A DNA stretch of 15,518 bases from Candidatus Micrarchaeia archaeon (GTDB taxonomy: Archaea > Micrarchaeota > Micrarchaeia > Burarchaeales > JAVZCV01). Below the pieces are notes generated by a model. The model had not been told where the DNA came from. It saw only the letters and a list, made by a program, of their open reading frames with translations, and ran no database searches. How positions within the stretch are numbered: position 1 is the first letter of the stretch; each line of letters starts with the position of its first letter. A program made the translations under genes and the position numbers. The stretch lies in NCBI GenBank assembly GCA_038874215.1, contig JAVZCV010000004.1, positions 36,538-52,055 of the forward strand, written 5' to 3'. This document shows, piece by piece, positions 1,623 through 15,518 of the stretch.

Positions 1623-1664
1623 CCTTGTCTTAGTAATTTTTTTGTGCCGTGGTAGCTCAGCCTG

Positions 1665-1698
1665 CGGGCTTTTTAGCAAAGCTAAAAAGCTCGGCTAA
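1665..1698 (+). other. tRNA-Phe intron 1, D-loop position 18/19, 34 nt, strict BHB
   Basis: Central helix AGCC/GGCT, bulges TG^C and AA^G, inner helix GGGCTTTTTAGC/GCTAAAAAGCTC, outer helix CTC/GAG. Confidence 0.92.
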
Positions 1699-1736
1699 GG
1701 AGAGCATCCGGCTGAAGACCGGAGTGTCGCTGGTTC

Positions 1737-1802
1737 GCGCCCCTTTTTCTAAAAAAGGAGAAAAAGCGGTTGTCCGGAAGACACCTCCCATGGGCGGCCA
1801 AA
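1737..1802 (+). other. tRNA-Phe intron 2, T-loop position 56/57, 66 nt
   Basis: Central helix TGGT/GCCA, bulges TC^G and AA^A, inner helix CGCCC/GGGCG. Removal restores the T-loop TTCAAAT. Confidence 0.9.
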
Positions 1803-1862
1803 AAATCCGGCCCACGGCACACATATCTTTACTCGCCAATTTTTCAGCCCATAAGAAACGAA

Positions 1863-1869
1863 TTTAAGG
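1863..1869 (+). promoter_or_regulatory. TATA box of tRNA-Gly(GCC)
   Basis: TTTAAGG at -31..-25 from 1894, preceded by purine-rich AAGAAACGAA (BRE-like). Confidence 0.5.
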
Positions 1870-1908
1870 TTTTATTGCCAAATCCATACCGATGCGGTTG
1901 TAGTCTAG

Positions 1909-1964
1909 TAAACTTTCTTTCAAAAAGAAAGTTTAATCAAAAAAACGAAAGAAAGTTTGGGCAA
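1909..1964 (+). other. tRNA-Gly(GCC) intron 1, D-loop position 15/16, 56 nt
   Basis: Central helix GTCT/GGGC (two G-U pairs), bulges AG^T and AA^C, inner helix AAACTTTCTTTC/GAAAGAAAGTTT. Confidence 0.88.
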
Positions 1965-1988
1965 CCTGGTTAGGACGCGAGCTTGCCA

Positions 1989-2006
1989 TGCGCTGAATGC
2001 GCAAAA
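1989..2006 (+). other. tRNA-Gly(GCC) intron 2, canonical position 37/38, 18 nt
   Basis: Central helix TTGC/GCAA, bulges CA^T and AA^A, inner helix GCG/TGC, outer helix is the anticodon stem. Confidence 0.92.
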
Positions 2007-2021
2007 AGCTCGTGGCCCGGG

Positions 2022-2060
2022 TGGCTTTTCTTTTCCGTTTTTAAAAAGAAAGCCCGGGAA
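2022..2060 (+). other. tRNA-Gly(GCC) intron 3, position 53/54, 39 nt
   Basis: Central helix CCCG/CGGG, bulges GG^T and AA^T, inner helix GGCTTT/AAAGCC. Confidence 0.92.
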
Positions 2061-2083
2061 TTCAAATCCCGGCGACCGCATCA

Positions 2084-2090
2084 TTTTTTT
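2084..2090 (+). terminator. Oligo-T terminator of tRNA-Gly(GCC), overlapping the convergent kinase stop codon
   Basis: T7 run 3 nt after the discriminator base. Archaeal terminators are oligo-T tracts. Confidence 0.5.
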
Positions 2091-3186
2091 AATACGTCAA
2101 AAAGAAGGCTGAGGCAAAGCAATCCCCAAGCCCTACGGTGCGCCTCTCTTTTACAGGGAAGCTTCCAACACCGCCTTTGACACCGAATCTTCCCTGTTTT
2201 ATTCTTTGTGAGTAATCGTACAGCTCCTCAAATCTTGGGTTTTTTCCATAAAATGCTCTATAAGAAGCGACTATTGAGGCGAAAACCTGTGCTTCTTCCT
2301 TCTTCTCCCCGACAAGAACCGAGCCTTCCTTTGTATGGATTACTGCACTCTTAACGATTTTTCTTAGACTATTGATATCACCGCCAGCAACCTGCTTCAA
2401 TTCAACCTCGTTCATCCCTACGCAATCAACGAGCGGAAAAAGCCTCCGTTTCACCTCCCTTGCAATATCCAAATCCTGAAAGTCGCCAAGCTCCAAAAAT
2501 ACCCTTATTTCTTGGTTCATATCCCTCCACCTCTCAACGAGCTTCTCTACATGCGCAACCCGCTCTCTGCACTTCCTGCCAAGAAGGTGGAAGCCGCCAA
2601 GAACAATTTTTTCTATCCTGCCTATATTCCTCTCAACGCATCTTTCAAAATTATCGTCAATAAGCATGTTGAAATTCGCCTCATCATACGATGCGATAAC
2701 CCTGTTTGATGCGGGAATCTTTTTGCCAAGAAACACCCCCTTCTTGAACTCAAAAACATAGTGCGTTGATTCCTCATCGCCACAACCTGCCATACGTGCG
2801 GGCTTAAAGCATTTTTCAGTCTGCACCATCACATTCTTATCAATGAGAGAAATCTGTCTTTCGGACTTGCTATACACGTGCAAATATGTGCTTACGCCAA
2901 GCGCCGCTGACACATTCGCCATATTTCCTGCCTGCCCTCCTACAACCGCAACACCGCCTCGTAGCTGTGCAAGTTTCTCTGCCGTCCTCCTTGAAACTCT
3001 TATCTCCCTCTGACCACCAGAAAATACGCATTCAAGAAGCGGAGCGAGCTCCTCGTTCTCTGAAAACACCTTTGCATGCTCCTCGCTGAACTCAAAAACA
3101 ACGTCAACGTTTGTGTTGAATGCAAATAAACAGGAATTCGCTACCCTTCCCTCGGCCCATTCAACATATTTCGCGTAGTCCTTCAT
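2089..3186 (-). CDS. ADP-dependent glucokinase/phosphofructokinase family protein (ribokinase superfamily)
   Basis: Family motifs AFNTNVD, GGQAGNMAN, NRVIAS, VFLELG, GMNEVEL (NxxE) and TVGLGD. Compact at 365 aa. Substrate cannot be determined by eye. Confidence 0.9.
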   Translation of the reverse strand: MKDYAKYVEWAEGRVANSCLFAFNTNVDVVFEFSEEHAKVFSENEELAPLLECVFSGGQREIRVSRRTAEKLAQLRGGVAVVGGQAGNMANVSAALGVSTYLHVYSKSERQISLIDKNVMVQTEKCFKPARMAGCGDEESTHYVFEFKKGVFLGKKIPASNRVIASYDEANFNMLIDDNFERCVERNIGRIEKIVLGGFHLLGRKCRERVAHVEKLVERWRDMNQEIRVFLELGDFQDLDIAREVKRRLFPLVDCVGMNEVELKQVAGGDINSLRKIVKSAVIHTKEGSVLVGEKKEEAQVFASIVASYRAFYGKNPRFEELYDYSQRIKQGRFGVKGGVGSFPVKERRTVGLGDCFASAFFLTY

Positions 3187-3192
3187 GCAACC

Positions 3193-3219
3193 TATTTAAT
3201 TCTTTCAGTTTTTTAAATA
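3193..3219. promoter_or_regulatory. Interleaved divergent promoters for the kinase (-) and tRNA-Gly(CCC) (+)
   Basis: TATTTAAT (+, 3193-3200) is at -34..-27 from the tRNA start. TATTTAAA (-, 3219-3212) is at -33..-26 from the kinase ATG, which has no SD, suggesting a leaderless mRNA. Confidence 0.55.
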
Positions 3220-3279
3220 CTTGAATGCGGCCGTAATCTAGCCTGGTAGGATATGAGCTTCCCAAGCTCACTGCCCGGG

Positions 3280-3317
3280 TGGCCTTTCTTTCTCTTCTGA
3301 GAAAAATGGCCCGGGAA
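3280..3317 (+). other. tRNA-Gly(CCC) intron 1, position 53/54, 38 nt
   Basis: Central helix CCCG/CGGG, bulges GG^T and AA^T, inner helix GGCC/GGCC. Confidence 0.92.
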
Positions 3318-3323
3318 TTCAAA

Positions 3324-3363
3324 GCAGCTTTTTTGGAAAAAGCTGCCAAAAAACTACTGGAAA
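3324..3363 (+). other. tRNA-Gly(CCC) intron 2, position 59/60, 40 nt, relaxed BHB
   Basis: Central helix TTCA/TGGA, bulges AA^G and AA^T, outer helix is the T stem. The inner helix is imperfect, and the A-run makes the exact boundary rest on BHB geometry. Confidence 0.8.
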
Positions 3364-3395
3364 TCCCGGCGGCCGCATCATTTCTGCTCATTTGA

Positions 3396-4040: not shown

Positions 4041-5312
4041 TCATGTTGTTATTCCTTCGCAGCTTTCCTTCACATCATACGTTTCTTTGTTCGTTGTCAG
4101 CAGGCATACTGTGCCCATACTCCTCCTGAAATATAATTCGTAAAACTCGTTTGCGCTTTCCCTCGTTGCATGGCACATGCGCATTCCGCGGTATGTCCTA
4201 ATCCCATCTATGGTGTAATTATACTTTGGCGTTTGGTTCACGGGGTATGTGGCTATATTTCCAGGCACACACCATACGTGCGTGCAGTCTTCTGCATAGT
4301 ATCTTATCTCGTTCGTTACTCTCGTCCTTATTCTCGTAGTGTAAATCATCGTCGGCTTTTTCACACCGCTTTCCCACCCTTCAAGCGTAACATAAACGTC
4401 CCCAACATTCTCCCCAAGCTCACCGAATGCGGCGGGAACAACAACATAGCACATACCGATGTTGCTCGCCTTTATCCTGCAAGCGCCGCCCGTAACCTTG
4501 TCATAAACTCCAAGCCCATCGGGCGTCGTAATCTCCATAACGAACGGGTGGTCGTTGTTAACCCTAAAATCAACATTGAAACTCTTACAGTTGAAAACGA
4601 ACTGCTCCGCTGGGCTTAGAACAGTCACCTTCAGCTCATCGTAACATACCTTGCAGTCTTCGTTGCAGGAGTAGCAATCTTCGTTGCTCTCACAAATGCC
4701 GTTTCCGCAGCAGGGTTTTATCTCCTCTATCGTGCATGTTCCCTCACTGCATGTCCTTCTTCTGCAAGGCTCTCCCTCTAGCTTTCCGCTGCATCCAGGC
4801 TGTTGTCCATCAATTTTTTGGTGCATGCACAGATAGCCCGTCTGCTCACTACAGTAATCCGTAGTGCATGGGTTTGCATCATCACACGATGCGGGGCACT
4901 GCGGAGTGCAATCCAAAGGACATGAGGAGAATTTTTCACCCTCCTCGCAAACCCCATTCCCGCAACAGTTTGTCACATTTTTTACTACGCACTCACCAGA
5001 GATGCATACTGCCAGCTTGCAGTTCTCGTCGGTTCTACATCCTGGATACGTTCCGTTTGCAGGGGCATGGCGACATGAGTAATTAGTATCCGAGCCGCAG
5101 TAATCAATTGTGCACGGATTTCCATCATCGCAAACAGGACATACTCTCTTTTCGCATTCCCCCAAATCTGTTACAACGGTGCCATCAGCACACGTGTATG
5201 TGTCGTTTCTCACATCGCCCGCTTTTTCTCCACCGAGATTAGGCATGGGCAACACGCATCCAGATAAAATCACAACCAAACCCACAGCTAAAACTATAAG
5301 ATTCGGCTTCAT
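4041..5312 (-). CDS. Cysteine-rich surface lipoprotein with CDDxNPCTxDxC and CCGNGxCE repeats
   Basis: Start at ATG 5312 gives MKPNLIVLAVGLVVILSGC, a signal peptide with an LSGC lipobox. Two tandem Cys-rich units and several NxT/S sequons follow. Confidence 0.85.
   Translation of the reverse strand: MKPNLIVLAVGLVVILSGCVLPMPNLGGEKAGDVRNDTYTCADGTVVTDLGECEKRVCPVCDDGNPCTIDYCGSDTNYSCRHAPANGTYPGCRTDENCKLAVCISGECVVKNVTNCCGNGVCEEGEKFSSCPLDCTPQCPASCDDANPCTTDYCSEQTGYLCMHQKIDGQQPGCSGKLEGEPCRRRTCSEGTCTIEEIKPCCGNGICESNEDCYSCNEDCKVCYDELKVTVLSPAEQFVFNCKSFNVDFRVNNDHPFVMEITTPDGLGVYDKVTGGACRIKASNIGMCYVVVPAAFGELGENVGDVYVTLEGWESGVKKPTMIYTTRIRTRVTNEIRYYAEDCTHVWCVPGNIATYPVNQTPKYNYTIDGIRTYRGMRMCHATRESANEFYELYFRRSMGTVCLLTTNKETYDVKESCEGITT
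4644..5141 (-). repeat. Two tandem Cys-rich protein units of about 81-85 aa
   Basis: CPVCDDGNPCTIDYC...Y.C.H...G..PGC...CCGNGVCEEGE...SC..DC aligns with CPASCDDANPCTTDYC...Y.C.H...G..PGC...CCGNGICESNE...SC..DC. Confidence 0.85.
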
Positions 5313-5421
5313 GGCATCTCTCTCGCTATTTCTTATGCACCGCAATATAAAAATATGACGCTAATAACGTGCGAGCGTTTTATTAATCTTACCAGAGCTA
5401 AAAAAGGCACAAGGTGATTCC

Positions 5422-9387: not shown

Positions 9388-9660
9388 TTATAGGATGACA
9401 TAAGGTTCCTCCTTTGGGCGAAGTGCGTAGCCAACTGTCTTTATTTCGGAAAAGCAGGAAGAACAGAGAGGTAAAACATGAACAACGTCTGTTTTTACCG
9501 TTTCGTCCAACTTTTTTATGAGCGCGCAGTAGGTGTTCTTGTCAAGCTCTCCAAAGAATGCGCTCTTCTGTATTCTCATCAAGCCAAAGTTCTTGAGTAT
9601 CTCGGCTACCGAGTTGCGCAGGTCATCATCAGTTATATCATAAATAACTACGTATTTCAT
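9388..9660 (-). CDS. cas2: CRISPR-associated endonuclease Cas2
   Basis: YVVIYDITDD...LKNFGLMRIQKSAFFG and C-terminal LPLCSSC. Coupled to cas1 by a TGATG overlap. Confidence 0.97.
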   Translation of the reverse strand: MKYVVIYDITDDDLRNSVAEILKNFGLMRIQKSAFFGELDKNTYCALIKKLDETVKTDVVHVLPLCSSCFSEIKTVGYALRPKEEPYVIL

Positions 9661-10652
9661 CAGTCTCCCGTATACCCATTGTAATAAGCTTTACACCCGA
9701 GAAGAAAGTCCGCTATCAAATTGCATTCAAATCGTATTATGTTTTCAAACCTCATTTTTTTGCCCTGGTATGGCTTATATGCATCAAGCAAAGAGAAGAC
9801 TGCCTGAACGACACGCCTTCTTCCAGAGTATGTAAGAAGATGGGATGTTTTGTCAAAATCCTCATCTACTTTAAACTCGTTCAGCGTGAAAAGCGAAATT
9901 ACCTGCCTATCAACAAAAGGCCTGAACTGCTCCATAACATCAAAAACAAGAGAACACCTGCCCTCAGCATCTGCATGGAGAAATCCCATATACGGATCAA
10001 GCGATGCCTTCACCGCAGAATCAAAAACCTTTGAGAACAAGATCGCATACGCATAGTTGAGCGAGGCATTGAAAGGGTCTGTTGCGCCACGTTTTACTCT
10101 TCCCTCTATTTCAACGTCCTTCCCAACCACGCACGCAACATTGCGCCAGTATTCGGTGGCAAATCTCGCTTCAACCGCCATTATTTCGTTTCGGCATTCG
10201 CTTATCGGGCCTTTAACCGCTTCAAGAGCGCAAATCATTTCTGATAACAGCTTCCTTGCATATGATACGTCTTCAAGCTGCCCTGTTTTTGCCAGGCTTG
10301 ATAAAACGCGCATTTGATTGACTAGCTTCGCTTTTATAATCGCCACAACGAGTTCTGTGCCCCTTTCAGTAGAGTAATGCTCAACCTGCTTTCTCCTTAC
10401 AGCTGCTTTCCCTCCCTCTTTCGGGTATGTTAGCATTGCAACCGGAGCATCAGAAAAGAGAAATGAAACGTTTATACCAAGAGAGGAGACTTCTTTTATC
10501 AGGTCGCACGATATGCATACGCCCCGGCACTCTATTAGAATCTGCGATATTTTAGAGAGCGGAAACTCCTCACGGTAGTCCCCACGCTTCACCACAACTC
10601 TCCTGCCTTTTTTCCCGACAAAACTCCCAAACTCAGAGACAAGAAGGCGCAT
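9660..10652 (-). CDS. cas1: CRISPR-associated integrase Cas1
   Basis: EARFATEYW, R.KRGATDPFNASLNYAYAIL, LDPYMGFLH and SLVFDVMEQFRPFVD. ATG 10652 has SD GGTGA 5 nt upstream. Confidence 0.97.
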   Translation of the reverse strand: MRLLVSEFGSFVGKKGRRVVVKRGDYREEFPLSKISQILIECRGVCISCDLIKEVSSLGINVSFLFSDAPVAMLTYPKEGGKAAVRRKQVEHYSTERGTELVVAIIKAKLVNQMRVLSSLAKTGQLEDVSYARKLLSEMICALEAVKGPISECRNEIMAVEARFATEYWRNVACVVGKDVEIEGRVKRGATDPFNASLNYAYAILFSKVFDSAVKASLDPYMGFLHADAEGRCSLVFDVMEQFRPFVDRQVISLFTLNEFKVDEDFDKTSHLLTYSGRRRVVQAVFSLLDAYKPYQGKKMRFENIIRFECNLIADFLLGCKAYYNGYTGD

Positions 10653-11193
10653 ATTTCTCACCCATGAGCTTCTTCTTCTCTGCCTTTATCTCCTCTATCA
10701 AGCCGATTAGCTCATCGTACTTATCACATAAAGCTGTCTTCACAACCCCGTATGGGTAAACCGTCAACGCCTCTGGCACTTTTAAGCAAAGGGCATACGC
10801 CGCAGCCTGATAACAATCCCCGGGAGTAACCTTTCCAAACTTGAATTCCACAGGCATTCCATTCTCAGCCACCCCATCAACTCTACCTATAAGAGAGAAA
10901 CCCTCGTTTCTAACAAAAATTTCTGTTTTAGCTATTCCGATGTTCTTTGCATTCCTCAAGAGCAGCCTTACCCGCTCTCTTTCACTTTGCGTGAATATTA
11001 TGCCACTCTCAACCTCAACTTTTTCAATCGCTTCCCTAAGAGGCTCGCCTTTTAGGGCTGCATACACTGCACAGTGTGCAGCCCTGCCAAAGCTGATATA
11101 GCGTCCAGAGAGCTTCGCTCCCTCAACGAAGATGCTTTTCCATTCTTCGTATGAATTTTTGTATATACGTATTTCGGAGCATGTAACTTTCAT
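10633..11193 (-). CDS. cas4: Cas4-like PD-(D/E)xK nuclease lacking the 4Fe-4S cysteine ligands
   Basis: GRAAH, IGRVDG, VEFKFG and QAAAYALCL are RecB/Cas4 motifs. First gene of the cas4-cas1-cas2 operon. Confidence 0.75.
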   Translation of the reverse strand: MKVTCSEIRIYKNSYEEWKSIFVEGAKLSGRYISFGRAAHCAVYAALKGEPLREAIEKVEVESGIIFTQSERERVRLLLRNAKNIGIAKTEIFVRNEGFSLIGRVDGVAENGMPVEFKFGKVTPGDCYQAAAYALCLKVPEALTVYPYGVVKTALCDKYDELIGLIEEIKAEKKKLMGEKYAPSCL

Positions 11194-11276
11194 GATTCTA
11201 TTTACTTTTTTCGCGATAAAAAATTGCCCTTGAACTGTTCTAAAAAAAGTTTAAAAAACCCGAGCAAAATAAAATC

Positions 11277-12008
11277 ATGGAATATAAATTGCAGATAGCG
11301 CTCGTAGGCGAGAAAAGCGAGCCCCTCCTTCGCTCAATTCCACGCATAAGTTCACAAAAAGTTGTCCTTTTCTCATCGCAGAAAACATTAAAAAACGCAA
11401 AGGGCATCAGAAACCGCTTGGATAATGTAGTAGCCATAGAGGAAATAGAACCATACGATATGGTAAATTGCTTCATAAAAACTCTAGAATGGATAAGAAA
11501 GACCCAAGGCCAGACTGCAATAAACATAACAGGTGGAACGAAGATATCCGCAATAGCGGCAATCATGGCAGCATATTTTGGGAATTCCCGCACATTCTAT
11601 CTCTCTGATGAGGGGAATATCATTGAAGTGCCTATTTTTGAGATGCGCATGATAGGTGAGGAAGCGCTGGTAAACAAAAAAAGGAAGCAGGTAAAAAAGA
11701 AGGAAATCTGTATACTTGAAGAATTGGAACGAGGGTCACTCATGCATAAGGAGCTAAGCAAGAAACTGGGTTTAAAAAAGAACAGCCTCACCTACCATAT
11801 GCGTAATCTTATCGGTGGGAATTTTGTTGAATTTACAAGCAAAGGGAGAGAAAAGCATTACCACATAACACAGCATGGCAGGCTTGTTTTAGAGAAATTG
11901 CGTACGCTGGAGAAACTCAAGAATGGGCAGTCATCGCAGAGCGTACGTGTAGGCGCCAGCACCAAAAGTGCTGAATTTACCGATATGCGAATATGTTCCA
12001 AAATCTAG
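11277..12008 (+). CDS. csa3: CARF-wHTH transcriptional regulator (Csa3-like)
   Basis: N-terminal Rossmann-like CARF domain (IALVG, INITGGTK, AAYF..FYL) and C-terminal winged HTH (HKELSKKLGLKKNSLTYHMRNL...GREKHYHITQHG). TATA TTTAAAAA at 11250-11257 suggests a leaderless transcript. Confidence 0.82.
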   Translation: MEYKLQIALVGEKSEPLLRSIPRISSQKVVLFSSQKTLKNAKGIRNRLDNVVAIEEIEPYDMVNCFIKTLEWIRKTQGQTAINITGGTKISAIAAIMAAYFGNSRTFYLSDEGNIIEVPIFEMRMIGEEALVNKKRKQVKKKEICILEELERGSLMHKELSKKLGLKKNSLTYHMRNLIGGNFVEFTSKGREKHYHITQHGRLVLEKLRTLEKLKNGQSSQSVRVGASTKSAEFTDMRICSKI

Positions 12009-12854
12009 CATCAGACTAACAAGCTCCTTGTCTTCTAAATTTGAAGCATCGTATTCTGCTTCACCAACAACAGCAGGAAAAAACTGGTGCTCAGACAATC
12101 TTCCCGCCCACCGTTTAATGTCCTGCCTTCTGAAATTAGAAGAAATCGTTTTGCTGTTCCTGTCAACATCCTCAAAAAGTTTTTTCCAGTCTATTTTTGG
12201 CTCGCTGTCAGTGTGGAAATAAACGATGTTTGAGAATTTTCGCGCAGCAGCACGTATGAGATGAGAAAAGCTTATCTCTTGGATTAAAGCAGAGTCAAAT
12301 ACAAGCATCGTTGGAGTAACGAAATTAACAGATACATAGTCAAAATTTTTTGTTCTTTTAGGAGAGATTGACGGAAGAGCTTGAAGATTGAGTGGCACAT
12401 ATCCGCCAGAATTCGGATCAAACATCTCCGACATACACAAAGAAACGTTGCCAAAACCCTTCTCACGGCCCTTGCCTATCCTATCAATGCTCCTTACAGC
12501 CTCATCAATGTACCTTGCATACTTAACCCCATTGCCAAAAAGCGTTATCTCAAAAGAAAACGTATCACCAGGACGGTATTCTCTCTTAGTGTTGAGAGGA
12601 GGCTCTATTACATATGGCTTCGTAACCTGGTTGCATTTCGCCAGTTTTGACATTATGGAAGGCGGTTTCGTTTCAAATATATACCCATAGGGGCAGATCG
12701 TGGCAAAACTGCATGAGCGGCATACCCCATTCTGACGCTTGCACGATATCTCGTGGAGCTTGCTCCCTAACGCACCCCTTATCGTGCCCCCTTTCCATTC
12801 TGGAAGAAGAGCGGGTGATTCAAACCGCAGAGTGTAGCGGAGTTTTGAGAGCAA
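11931..12854 (-). CDS. cas6: CRISPR RNA-processing endoribonuclease Cas6 (variant with N-terminal Cys cluster)
   Basis: WKGGTIRGALG, C-x7-CxxC-x5-CPY, PYVIEPP, IGKGREKGFG, FVTPT and the C-terminal G-loop HIGKFSTFGAG. Confidence 0.93.
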   Translation of the reverse strand: MLSKLRYTLRFESPALLPEWKGGTIRGALGSKLHEISCKRQNGVCRSCSFATICPYGYIFETKPPSIMSKLAKCNQVTKPYVIEPPLNTKREYRPGDTFSFEITLFGNGVKYARYIDEAVRSIDRIGKGREKGFGNVSLCMSEMFDPNSGGYVPLNLQALPSISPKRTKNFDYVSVNFVTPTMLVFDSALIQEISFSHLIRAAARKFSNIVYFHTDSEPKIDWKKLFEDVDRNSKTISSNFRRQDIKRWAGRLSEHQFFPAVVGEAEYDASNLEDKELVSLMLDFGTYSHIGKFSTFGAGAYTYALR

Positions 12855-12858
12855 AAAA

Positions 12859-14259
12859 TCACTCTTCTAAATTTATGAAAACATGCGGCTCAATTATCTT
12901 CTCAAAATCAGACTGCAAATATTCTCTAAAAATTTCTACAGTTAATTTATACATCCCCTCATAATCCTTCTTTGAAGCAAATTCCTTACCATGCGCAACT
13001 ATCAGCTTATTCCTCGTGTCAATTACCGCCTTTAGTGTTTTCAACCTTTCTGTATGATTATCCCCTGCCTTTGCATGCTCTACTGCCGTTAAAACTATAT
13101 GTGCGTCAAGGGCACCAATCTTACTCCCAAGCGGATACGGTTCACCGTATATCTCCTTCCTGATTTCGTTTAAGCGCTCTAGTTCATCGCTTTGTAGACC
13201 GTCTTCTTTAAAATTTGATGTGTCAATGTTTCTTTTCGCGAGTTGCCATTGCGCTATTATTTCAACTGCCCTATAGAGGCGGCATATCCCCTCATTGTAG
13301 TTCCTTTCATCCGCTCTTCTTTTCGCATTCGCTATCATGTCGGCTATTAGGTGTACCGGATAACTATCGTTCTCATCTCTGAGAAGATCAAAAAACTTCC
13401 CACTTCGGCCGAGTAGTTTCAATACGTCTATCTGGTTTTTTATCCTATTGGCATGATGCCTATGAATCTTATGGAGATTTATGTTTTCGAGCGCATTTCT
13501 GAGCATATTTTCTGCAACAGAATAATTAAACGAATCCCAATGATAATACGCCCCTGCTATGAACGCCTCTATCTCATATTGGTGATGTTCTGATAAGTTT
13601 CTTAGTTCTTTAAATAGGCTTTCGGCAGCGCTGTATTGGTGGTTGTTGAAAAGCGACACTGCACGTAGCCTGTTCAAATCGCCAAAAACATTAAACGGAT
13701 TTTCAAGTTCAACGAGTTTTTCGCTTCCCGGGACAGTCTTCCCATTCTTCTGCTCTGAATCAATGTAGATAAGCGCAGCGTTGATGAATGCACCCGCAGC
13801 TGTTGCTCCTCCTGCCATCGCCTTTTTGCCCCCCGTTATATCAACAGCTATCTTTCCATATTTCCCCCACTTCTTCCATACTTTCTTTATATTCTTATAA
13901 ACATCGGATGCATCCGCACTGCTGATCTCCTCTAAACAATACTGGCTGGGTTTTAAGCGCGTCGCACTCACAACCTTGTCAATCGTTTTCTTTGATTCTG
14001 AGGAGTGAAGAAAACACACCTCCTTTGGTTTTATTGCAAGTATAGATAGTGCTATGGGTTCTGGGCTATTCCCTACACTCACTATAAGGTAGTCATATTT
14101 TCCTTTACACCCATACTCATTAACGAATTTTTCCTTAACCAGCGGAAAGAGATTCTTCCAATAAAACTTATCCTTATTCTCTTTGTCTTCTATCTTCTCC
14201 CAAATTTCAATCAGCTTATGAAGACGTGTATAGTCCCGCATGCTCTCAACCCCAACCAA
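12859..14259 (-). CDS. TIGR02710-like CARF-HEPN effector (cOA-activated RNase, Csm6/Csx1 class)
   Basis: CARF motifs VSVGNSPEPIALSI and VDITGGKKAM, PGSE..LENP, a helical mid-region with RLYRAVE, and HEPN RNKLIVAHG (R-x6-H). The start may be ATG 14241. Confidence 0.88.
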   Translation of the reverse strand: MVGVESMRDYTRLHKLIEIWEKIEDKENKDKFYWKNLFPLVKEKFVNEYGCKGKYDYLIVSVGNSPEPIALSILAIKPKEVCFLHSSESKKTIDKVVSATRLKPSQYCLEEISSADASDVYKNIKKVWKKWGKYGKIAVDITGGKKAMAGGATAAGAFINAALIYIDSEQKNGKTVPGSEKLVELENPFNVFGDLNRLRAVSLFNNHQYSAAESLFKELRNLSEHHQYEIEAFIAGAYYHWDSFNYSVAENMLRNALENINLHKIHRHHANRIKNQIDVLKLLGRSGKFFDLLRDENDSYPVHLIADMIANAKRRADERNYNEGICRLYRAVEIIAQWQLAKRNIDTSNFKEDGLQSDELERLNEIRKEIYGEPYPLGSKIGALDAHIVLTAVEHAKAGDNHTERLKTLKAVIDTRNKLIVAHGKEFASKKDYEGMYKLTVEIFREYLQSDFEKIIEPHVFINLEE

Positions 14260-15333
14260 TCACTTGACTTCAACCGCGACCCAGCCAGGAGGAAAAAGGC
14301 TACCGTTGTACCTGCAAAGCTTGCGTGAGTTCGGGCAACTCTCCGCATTCCTGCTTCTTCTTCGAGGCAGAAGCTCTCTTCTTAATCTTTCGTCTTCGGA
14401 GAAAACCGAAGTCATGAAAAAAGACGAGCCCATGCCAAGCCGAAGCAGATACATTTTCTCTTCCTTAAGTTTTTTGTAGAAATCAACAACCCGCTCGTAT
14501 TCAGCGGAAAAGGCACCATAGTCCCCAAAAAACCTGATTTCTGCTTCTACAATACGTCTGCAACGTTCAGAACAAATACCCAGTATTCTTGTGACATTTA
14601 GTTCTTCTGTATCTCCAAAATTTTTGACCCACATTTCTGTTTTAAACGAGAGATTTGGCGGTATGAACTCGCCGAAAAGCTTTGATCCCCTCCCCCTCCT
14701 ACTTCGCATCATCTCCCCTAAAGCCCCATCCCTCTCACGGTGTATCTCAAGCGGGCATAATGCAAGCATAGCATCGGAAGGAGCATCCGAATATACATCT
14801 CTTAAGCCAAAACGGCGTTCCCTTAAAGACTTCTCGATCTCCACCACAATTCCACGCAAATGATCCCTGAGCTCTCTATTCCTTATTAATTCTTGCATTT
14901 TGTCTGGGGTGGGTATTTTCACTTTATCATACACGAGGCATCCTTTTATAGAGCCTTTAATCGATGAACCGGGAATGTATGGTCTGCCGAGGCCGTCTTT
15001 TATGAAAACGTGAACTTCATACGTTCTCTCAAAATCCTGTTTCGCATGGTTTTCAAGGTAGTAGGCAGCTATATCTTTTGGCTCTATCTTTTTCTCATTT
15101 ACAAATTTTTCTATGCTGAATTCATCAGGTTTACGCATTGATCCTACAAGGTCTTCTATACCCTTTTCATCCAGCAGCATGGTGAGTTTTTCTATATCTA
15201 CCCTTATCGCTCTTCCGTCTTGCCTAATGTAATCATAGCCTATTCTCGCCTTCTCACCACTTCCGATCAGGATAGGGCTTAGGGTTTTTATCTCAAGAGT
15301 TCTTCTTTCTACTTCTCTCTCCCCATCACTCAT
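14260..15333 (-). CDS. csm5: Type III-A RAMP subunit Csm5
   Basis: TLSPILIGSG, PYIPGSSIKGSIK, LRLGMGSSF and C-terminal PPGWV. ATG 15333 has SD GGTGA and overlaps the csm4 stop. Confidence 0.92.
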   Translation of the reverse strand: MSDGEREVERRTLEIKTLSPILIGSGEKARIGYDYIRQDGRAIRVDIEKLTMLLDEKGIEDLVGSMRKPDEFSIEKFVNEKKIEPKDIAAYYLENHAKQDFERTYEVHVFIKDGLGRPYIPGSSIKGSIKGCLVYDKVKIPTPDKMQELIRNRELRDHLRGIVVEIEKSLRERRFGLRDVYSDAPSDAMLALCPLEIHRERDGALGEMMRSRRGRGSKLFGEFIPPNLSFKTEMWVKNFGDTEELNVTRILGICSERCRRIVEAEIRFFGDYGAFSAEYERVVDFYKKLKEEKMYLLRLGMGSSFFMTSVFSEDERLRRELLPRRRSRNAESCPNSRKLCRYNGSLFPPGWVAVEVK

Positions 15334-15518
15334 CCGAATCACCACTGAAGAAGTAAGGAATAGTTCTTCCATCCCAGAAAACAGCATGCCCGTCTATCTC
15401 AAAATCACGGTATTTTCCATACGCGCCATACAGTTCCTTCTTATTTTCGCATGGGAAAATTGATCCCTCGGCGATAAAAATCTTTGTAGGCTTCACCTTT
15501 TCCTTTGCATATATGTTT
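15326..15518 (-). CDS. csm4: 3' end of type III-A RAMP subunit Csm4 (partial)
   Basis: My translation from 15517 is NIYAKEKVKPTKIFIAEGSIFPCENKKELYGAYGKYRDFEIDGHAVFWDGRTIPYFFSGDSDE*. The EGS.F...G...H.V...G pattern and the position upstream of csm5 fit Csm4. Confidence 0.85.
   Translation of the reverse strand, partial: NIYAKEKVKPTKIFIAEGSIFPCENKKELYGAYGKYRDFEIDGHAVFWDGRTIPYFFSGDSDE

Follow-up and report, generated by a model that had tools for sequence, protein, structure and literature searches.

Can transfer RNA (tRNA) genes that contain two or three introns apiece, some of them in the D loop or the T loop, be working genes, and which enzymes would then restore the mature molecules? The question is raised by a stretch of 15,518 nucleotides (nt) of contig JAVZCV010000004.1 in assembly GCA_038874215.1 (hereafter the window, meaning this whole stretch), where positions 1646-3377 of the + strand carry genes for tRNA-Phe(GAA), tRNA-Gly(GCC) and tRNA-Gly(CCC) with two, three and two introns of the bulge-helix-bulge (BHB) type, respectively. 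An original prediction, made from the letters of the DNA, had proposed these seven introns. Our analysis of the loci leads us to conclude that they are very probably the sole, functional genes for the three tRNAs in a Micrarchaeota-like DPANN archaeon, with their introns cut out by an epsilon2-type EndA endonuclease and their exons joined by RtcB.

Exon maps and spliced products

Read as continuous DNA, the window yields no tRNA gene; ARAGORN reported 0 genes over the whole 15.5-kb stretch and a search with Rfam at gathering thresholds gave 0 matches, as expected from the original claim that standard annotation would probably miss or truncate these genes. Once the exons had been joined by coordinate (Table 1), ARAGORN recognised all three products, as Phe(gaa), Gly(gcc) and Gly(ccc), with mature lengths of 74, 74 and 73 nt. 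The same three genes and seven introns, with identical exon maps, were returned by a scanner of our own that was given no coordinates. In linear numbering of the mature molecules the introns follow nt 19 and 57 (Phe), nt 15, 39 and 54 (Gly-GCC) and nt 53 and 59 (Gly-CCC); elsewhere, position names such as 18/19 or 37/38 follow the standard tRNA numbering convention. Exon maps, ARAGORN and the unguided scanner agree on the intron positions first proposed and on 1646 and 3377 as exact gene ends, and cutting after the second base of each bulge does produce the standard cloverleaves of 73-74 nt that had been foreseen.

The genome studied, designated G000, is GCA_038874215.1 itself (38 contigs, assembly 91% complete). 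It is the sole member of its family and genus, and was compared with 40 genomes of the same order or class. The scanner is cloverleaf-aware, walking a tRNA model along the DNA while being allowed to skip any candidate BHB intron, and the register tested consists of four central base pairs (bp), a 3-nt bulge on each strand and a cut after the second bulge base. It was run over the 220 kb of G000 outside long open reading frames (ORFs), subsequently wherever intron similarity or the exons of the relative G019 pointed to a further locus, and at 19 loci fetched from the relatives. The ORF mask partly covered 3 of the 23 loci checked, and tRNA genes in masked DNA could be missed. On reversed sequence (542 of 771 unmasked segments) the top score was 18.5, compared to at least 24.5 for accepted genes. 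A simpler procedure, the removal of one intron followed by ARAGORN, was discarded as too permissive, having returned many conflicting calls from long variable arms.

Comparison with orthologues fixed the exon boundaries independently of the BHB motif. tRNA-Phe was found in 14 relatives, in 11 of them without introns and in three with (G001 after nt 19 and 57, G014 after nt 19 and 38, G040 after nt 60). Ten of the intron-less orthologues have the same length as the spliced Phe of G000, which aligns gap-free with each of them at 63-71 identical positions out of 74 and is identical to the spliced Phe of G014 at 74 of 74. For tRNA-Gly(GCC), found in nine relatives, seven copies are intron-less and two have one intron, which in G005 follows nt 15 as it does in G000; five orthologues of equal length match the spliced product without gaps at 62-70 of 74 positions. 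The spliced Gly-CCC matches its orthologue in G009 at 71 of 73. All residues flanking the junctions are conserved in the Phe and Gly-GCC alignments, and Gly-GCC directly follows Phe in eight relatives. When Phe is aligned between G000, G001 and G014, the exons, the 3' central-helix strand of the 18/19 intron and the terminal AA are invariant while the hairpins diverge; the 56/57 intron measures 66 nt in G000 and 33 nt at the same position in G001. Intron-less, one-intron and two-intron orthologues of one tRNA can be compared across related genomes.

None of the three genes encodes CCA. The exons have a G+C content of 63%, compared to 43% for the introns. A run of seven T lies just after Gly-GCC and one of five T about 25 nt downstream of Phe, and we infer that the three genes are separate transcription units.

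Motif geometry, splicing enzymes and rival explanations

At 7 of 7 introns the central helix is paired at 4 of 4 positions, between two 3-nt bulges in the register of a cut after the second base. Shifting either end by 1-4 nt, as a control, reached 4/4 in 13 of 560 cases (2.3%). Each of the seven introns ends in AA, as the original prediction had it, and six of the seven central helices are bordered by an inner helix of 3-12 bp. Solid outer helices are confined to three introns, with 3 bp at Phe 18/19, 7 bp at Gly-GCC 37/38 and 3 bp at Gly-GCC 53/54. For the five introns of Phe and Gly-GCC, the mature sequence fixes the junction in three; in the other two it can slide by one base. In the 59/60 introns, one side of the central helix is formed by T-loop nt 54-57 and the 5-bp outer helix by the T stem, a geometry that copies the anticodon arm. 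The 53/54 intron of Gly-CCC lies between the 5' T-stem strand and the T loop and draws on nt 48-51 for its own central helix. In the primary transcript the 59/60 motif of this gene lacks an outer helix, and the 5-bp T stem becomes available to it after removal of the 53/54 intron.

Searches with Pfam located EndA at one locus in the whole genome, on contig C2, with a product of 385 amino acids that comprises an N-terminal domain and two C-terminal-domain stretches. Residues 5-385 align in one stretch with residues 7-387 of PDB 4FZ2, the epsilon2 enzyme of ARMAN-2 (465 bits, E 1.3e-138). Y233, H248 and K279 fall on the triad Y236, H251 and K282 of 4FZ2, and K158 falls on K161. In the study of the ARMAN-2 enzyme, these are given as the catalytic triad and as the lysine of an ARMAN-specific loop that confers broad specificity (PMC3488258). 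The alignment, the triad and the loop lysine support classification of the G000 enzyme as a putative epsilon2-type endonuclease of broad specificity, formed by an alphaN-alpha-betaC single chain, and a broad-specificity enzyme is what the original prediction had called for. An RtcB ligase gene was also found (E 4e-177). Because of its splicing enzymes, in particular the match of EndA to that of ARMAN-2, the host organism is described here as Micrarchaeota-like, on sequence grounds.

Taken together with the exon maps, these enzymes suggest the following route. Each gene would be transcribed as a precursor of 151-187 nt, and a BHB motif would form in the RNA at every exon-intron boundary. The single epsilon2-type endonuclease, by homology a homodimer of a three-unit chain, would cut both 3-nt bulges, after which RtcB would join the exons, CCA being added later. 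In Gly-CCC the 53/54 intron would leave first, the T stem would form, the 59/60 motif would thereby be completed and the second intron would be removed. This order is probable because the T stem, the outer helix of the 59/60 motif, forms only after 53/54 excision.

Several points weigh against this account. Only 0 or 1 outer bp stands beside the central helix in four of the seven motifs, which are relaxed in this sense, and cutting them would depend on a relaxed specificity that was shown for the ARMAN-2 enzyme and is extended to the present one by analogy. Minimum-free-energy folds of the whole precursors contain a complete central helix at one of the seven introns, and because of this low count whole-precursor folding decides neither for nor against the motifs. 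No RNA sequencing run on record contains the window stretch. The splicing order of Gly-CCC, probable as it is, was read from base pairing alone.

The loci could be decaying pseudogenes that have accumulated insertions and fallen out of use, and the blindness of ARAGORN and Rfam to them, with no expression on record, would suit that idea. Against it, the exons are undamaged, with Phe matching G014 throughout and the differences from other orthologues lying mostly at stem positions, each insertion sits in precise BHB register, and 36 of the 40 tRNA genes recovered from the genome are built alike. The original prediction had regarded intron-less copies of these isoacceptors elsewhere, together with a lack of spliced junction reads, as a sign of pseudogenes; the 91%-complete assembly holds no other Phe, Gly-GCC or Gly-CCC gene, and BLAST with the three spliced tRNAs matched nothing in G000 beyond the exons themselves and short stretches of T arm, with no uninterrupted copy. 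Because of these comparative results and of the missing uninterrupted copy, pseudogenes are ruled out as far as the completeness of the assembly allows, and we consider them very unlikely. That the interruptions are artefacts of assembly or binning is hardly conceivable. The sequence is a metagenome-assembled genome in 38 contigs, and the only run with the whole stretch, from a hot-springs metagenome, may be its own source; however, genomes of other families have introns at the same sites (G001 Phe after nt 19 and 57, G014 Phe after nt 19, G005 Gly-GCC after nt 15), and an artefact would not yield BHB geometry at seven of seven sites.

It is also conceivable, at a slight probability, that the genes are functional and some inserts are removed by another route, at other boundaries or in another order, such as in a shifted register or with 59/60 leaving before 53/54. 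Weak outer helices at four introns would fit this, as would the minimum-free-energy fold of Gly-CCC, in which the 59/60 intron pairs preferentially one base out of register and the 3' T-stem strand is taken up by the tail of intron 1. Yet only the predicted boundaries yield the mature sequences of the intron-less orthologues, and the group I and group II intron models of Rfam had no match in the window. Excision of BHB introns from functional genes is therefore the explanation that we prefer.

Table 1. Coordinates of the three tRNA genes, their exons and introns (window positions) and of other loci referred to in the text (contig positions in G000, or window positions where so marked)
Feature	Position	Strand	Length (nt)	Remarks
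tRNA-Phe(GAA)	1646..1819	+	174	3 exons, 2 introns, mature 74 nt; scanner score 27.5
Phe exon 1	1646..1664	+		mature nt 1-19
Phe intron 1, D-loop 18/19	1665..1698	+	34	strict BHB: outer 3, central 4, inner 12 bp
Phe exon 2	1699..1736	+		mature nt 20-57; BLAST matches in relatives
Phe intron 2, T-loop 56/57	1737..1802	+	66	relaxed: central 4, inner 5 bp, outer none
Phe exon 3	1803..1819	+		mature nt 58-74
tRNA-Gly(GCC)	1894..2080	+	187	4 exons, 3 introns, mature 74 nt
Gly-GCC exon 1	1894..1908	+		nt 1-15
Gly-GCC intron 1, D-loop 15/16	1909..1964	+	56	central 4 bp (2 G-U), inner 12 bp
Gly-GCC exon 2	1965..1988	+		nt 16-39
Gly-GCC intron 2, canonical 37/38	1989..2006	+	18	outer helix 7 bp (anticodon stem)
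Gly-GCC exon 3	2007..2021	+		nt 40-54
Gly-GCC intron 3, 53/54	2022..2060	+	39	T-stem 5' strand serves in central helix
Gly-GCC exon 4	2061..2080	+		nt 55-74
tRNA-Gly(CCC)	3227..3377	+	151	3 exons, 2 introns, mature 73 nt; scanner score 27.5 / 27.0
Gly-CCC exon 1	3227..3279	+		nt 1-53
Gly-CCC intron 1, 53/54	3280..3317	+	38	central 4, inner 4 bp
Gly-CCC exon 2, micro-exon	3318..3323	+	6	T-loop nt 54-59
Gly-CCC intron 2, 59/60	3324..3363	+	40	central 4 bp; outer 5-bp T stem only after intron 1 removal
Gly-CCC exon 3	3364..3377	+		nt 60-73
Gly-TCC gene	G000:C14:2527-2747			15/16 intron is a family member
Glu-TTC gene	G000:C2:75577-75780			15/16 intron is a family member
Leu-CAA gene	G000:C1:160428-160665			37/38 intron is a family member
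23S rRNA insert	G000:C14:4054-4112	-	59	family member, score 62
23S rRNA gene	G000:C14:3563-6811		3249
16S rRNA gene	G000:C14:7164-9272		2109
RtcB ligase gene	G000:C11:2606-3910
Ala-CGC	G000:C1:55276-55394			ARAGORN: Leu(caa)
Gln-TTG	G000:C6:39441-39554			ARAGORN: stop-codon tRNA (tta)
Arg-CCG	G000:C1:68719-68810			ARAGORN: Gly
Permuted tRNA-Cys(GCA)	G000:C36:5278-5373			3' half 5278-5312, 5' half 5338-5373
Cas1	window 9660-10661			CRISPR-Cas block 9660-15387
Cas6	window 11931-12854			CRISPR-Cas block
Csm6-like HEPN protein	window 12859-14259			CRISPR-Cas block
RAMP protein	window 14260-15387			CRISPR-Cas block

The tRNA set of the genome

The state of the three genes is the rule in G000. ARAGORN found 5 tRNAs in the whole genome without its intron option and 16 with the option for anticodon-loop introns, several of them misassigned, while Rfam gave 15-16 tRNA matches. 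The scanner recovered 36 genes with 63 introns; three genes have none (Ala-GGC, Ile-GAT and Leu-CAG), 13 have one, 10 have two and 10 have three. Four further genes were recovered partly by eye, namely Ala-CGC (one intron), Thr-GGT on C33 (one T-loop intron, ends uncertain), Arg-TCT at C1:82280 (three inserts, ends approximate) and a circularly permuted Cys. Relaxed and weak local re-scans at the Thr-GGT and Arg-TCT loci and at C12:3600-3950 gave no acceptable gene. In total, 40 genes were recovered, of which 36 carry about 68 introns, one is permuted and three are uninterrupted; 37 of 40 (92%) are disrupted, at about 1.7 introns per gene. The set is close to saturated, as had been supposed from the window, and the low genome-wide counts of the standard programs extend what was seen there. 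The census is biased to motifs that the scanner rules accept, and about seven expected anticodons are missing from it, namely Leu-TAA, Leu-TAG, Pro-GGG, Arg-GCG, Ser-GGA, Ser-CGA and a further gene with CAT.

In the first 34 genes recovered, which hold 58 introns, the sites used most often were 37/38 (20), 59/60 (13) and 53/54 (7). The terminal AA is found in 32 of 36 non-canonical introns, a set obtained in part by a rule that favours AA, and in 16 of 17 non-canonical introns from a run without that rule. With its intron option ARAGORN misnamed three of the loci in Table 1 and placed the splice site wrongly in each.

The 3' half of tRNA-Cys(GCA) lies 25 nt upstream of its 5' half. Joined in the order 5' half then 3' half, they are called by ARAGORN as a tRNA-Cys of 71 nt, and leader and trailer form a BHB motif at 37/38 with a central helix of 4/4 and an outer helix of 6 bp. 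Both halves are single-copy in the genome, and the order is normal in the eight relatives in which both halves were matched; possibly the permutation is a misassembly. The literature search for permuted tRNAs in Micrarchaeota returned only general mentions.

Across the 41 genomes of the order or class, the relatives have 2-44 Rfam tRNA matches per genome. The counts form a low group of 17 relatives (plus G000) at 17 or fewer and a high group of 16 genomes at 30-44. Several families of the order would, on this evidence, commonly have heavily interrupted tRNA genes, with the count being confounded by incomplete assemblies. Standard pipelines would show G000 without most of its tRNAs, thus affecting inferences on completeness and codon usage in such genomes.

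Intron families, known systems and neighbouring genes

When 51 introns were locally aligned all against all, 43 of the 1275 pairs exceeded a threshold of 27; 3000 mononucleotide-shuffled pairs reached at most 23, in a shuffle that does not preserve hairpins. The 15/16 intron of Gly-GCC scores 55-65 with four other introns, those of Gly-TCC, Glu-TTC and Leu-CAA and an insert in the 23S ribosomal RNA (rRNA) gene (Table 1), and these strong links extend to the non-hairpin tail. Weaker links, which may reflect common low-complexity stems, join the family to the 37/38 introns of Ala-TGC, Trp and Pro-CGG. A second family consists of the 59/60 introns of Gly-CCC, Gly-TCC and Glu-TTC (Gly-CCC scoring 41-51) and a third of the 53/54 introns of Gly-GCC and Gly-CCC (score 27). 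Gly-TCC, Glu-TTC and Leu-CAA have three introns each, and the first two of these genes hold all three families of the window Gly genes in mosaic combinations (15/16, 53/54 and 59/60). Searching the genome with the introns by blastn-short at E 1e-3 gave only five non-self matches, and a fuzzy search for the short core of the 53/54 family gave noise only.

The 23S insert forms a perfect BHB motif (central 4/4, inner 8 bp). G004, G007 and G019 lack it at this site, their BLAST pieces abutting in the subject, and near the site nine other relatives hold 200-250 extra nt. The 23S rRNA gene as a whole measures 3249 nt against 2987 in the model (about 260 extra nt) and the 16S rRNA gene 2109 nt against a model of 1478 positions (about 630 extra nt); group I intron models had no match to either gene at gathering score. 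The tRNA-Ala(TGC) in the rRNA spacer has two introns.

Introns turn over faster than exons change, since G000 and G014, which belong to different families, share an identical mature tRNA-Phe with different intron sets. We tentatively propose, at somewhat less than an even chance, that the seven introns belong to families of BHB mini-introns that are mobile now or were very recently, in a lineage with an epsilon2 enzyme. If true, gain of archaeal tRNA introns could be traced site by site in this group of genomes, and tRNA and rRNA introns would draw on one pool. An exact-pattern scan of species genomes for the core of the dispersed family gave three matches (Moheibacter, Methanosarcinales and ANME-1), all intergenic and none in a tRNA; these neither support nor exclude spread of the introns beyond this group. 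In the Methanosarcinales and ANME-1 records, which are from archaea of other phyla, the core, hairpin and tail, recurs almost letter for letter at about position 301-327, just past a stop codon, and no tRNA was detected in its surroundings there.

ARMAN-2 (Candidatus Micrarchaeum acidiphilum) is reported to have 43 tRNA genes, 56% of them disrupted, and its epsilon2 enzyme cuts strict and relaxed motifs, while in archaea with the (alpha-beta)2 enzyme up to 87% of tRNA genes are disrupted (PMC3239211). G000 resembles ARMAN-2 in its epsilon2 EndA, with triad and loop lysine kept, and in non-canonical introns with strict and relaxed BHB motifs. The adjacent 53/54 and 59/60 introns of Gly-CCC recur as the same pair in the pre-tRNA-Pro(GGG) of ARMAN-2, whose pre-tRNA-Cys also has a 59/60 intron (PMC3239211). 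The two differ in that G000 belongs to another genus and family, its EndA being roughly 60% identical as read off the alignment by eye, and in the disrupted fraction, 92% in place of 56%.

With Thermoproteales the genome shares genes that hold as many as three introns, often in the D loop or the T loop, and near-identical introns across isoacceptors at canonical and non-canonical sites. Near-identical introns at both kinds of site in different Thermoproteales tRNAs were read as transposition by Fujishima et al. 2010, according to a review (PMC4090602). Unlike in Thermoproteales, with their heterotetrameric (alpha-beta)2 enzyme, the enzyme here is of the epsilon2 type and one family member is also found in a 23S rRNA gene; the literature searched held no mention of an intron family shared by tRNA and 23S rRNA genes, which is no proof of its being unpublished. 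In Asgard archaea, most tRNA genes are reported to be interrupted and many to be missed by standard annotation (preprint, bioRxiv 10.64898/2026.10.13.758758). The same preprint gives Pyrobaculum calidifontis as the richest reference, with 1.54 introns per gene, some Asgard families with more than two, and up to five in one gene. The density in G000 lies between Pyrobaculum calidifontis and the richest Asgard families, with a maximum of three per gene seen; unlike the Asgard archaea, G000 belongs to another phylum and has another enzyme type.

The tRNA set of G000 hence adds another, more densely interrupted case to a known kind, with layout and enzyme described for ARMAN-2 in 2011, and no new mechanism is revealed. 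What may be novel is the degree of disruption in an epsilon2 lineage (about 92% of genes, about 1.7 introns per gene) and the intron family common to tRNAs and 23S rRNA. The known link between a broad-specificity epsilon2 endonuclease and intron-rich tRNA sets, seen at 56% disruption in ARMAN-2, now includes a second lineage at about 92%.

The original prediction had also raised the idea that the introns may mask attB sites of integrases; no integrase was found among the genes of the window. The neighbours of the tRNA genes include a glutamine synthetase and Rad50, and a gene of the ADP-dependent sugar-kinase family lies between the tRNAs on the opposite strand. Farther along, the window contains a block of clustered regularly interspaced short palindromic repeats and associated genes (CRISPR-Cas), with Cas1, Cas6, a Csm6-like HEPN protein and a RAMP protein.

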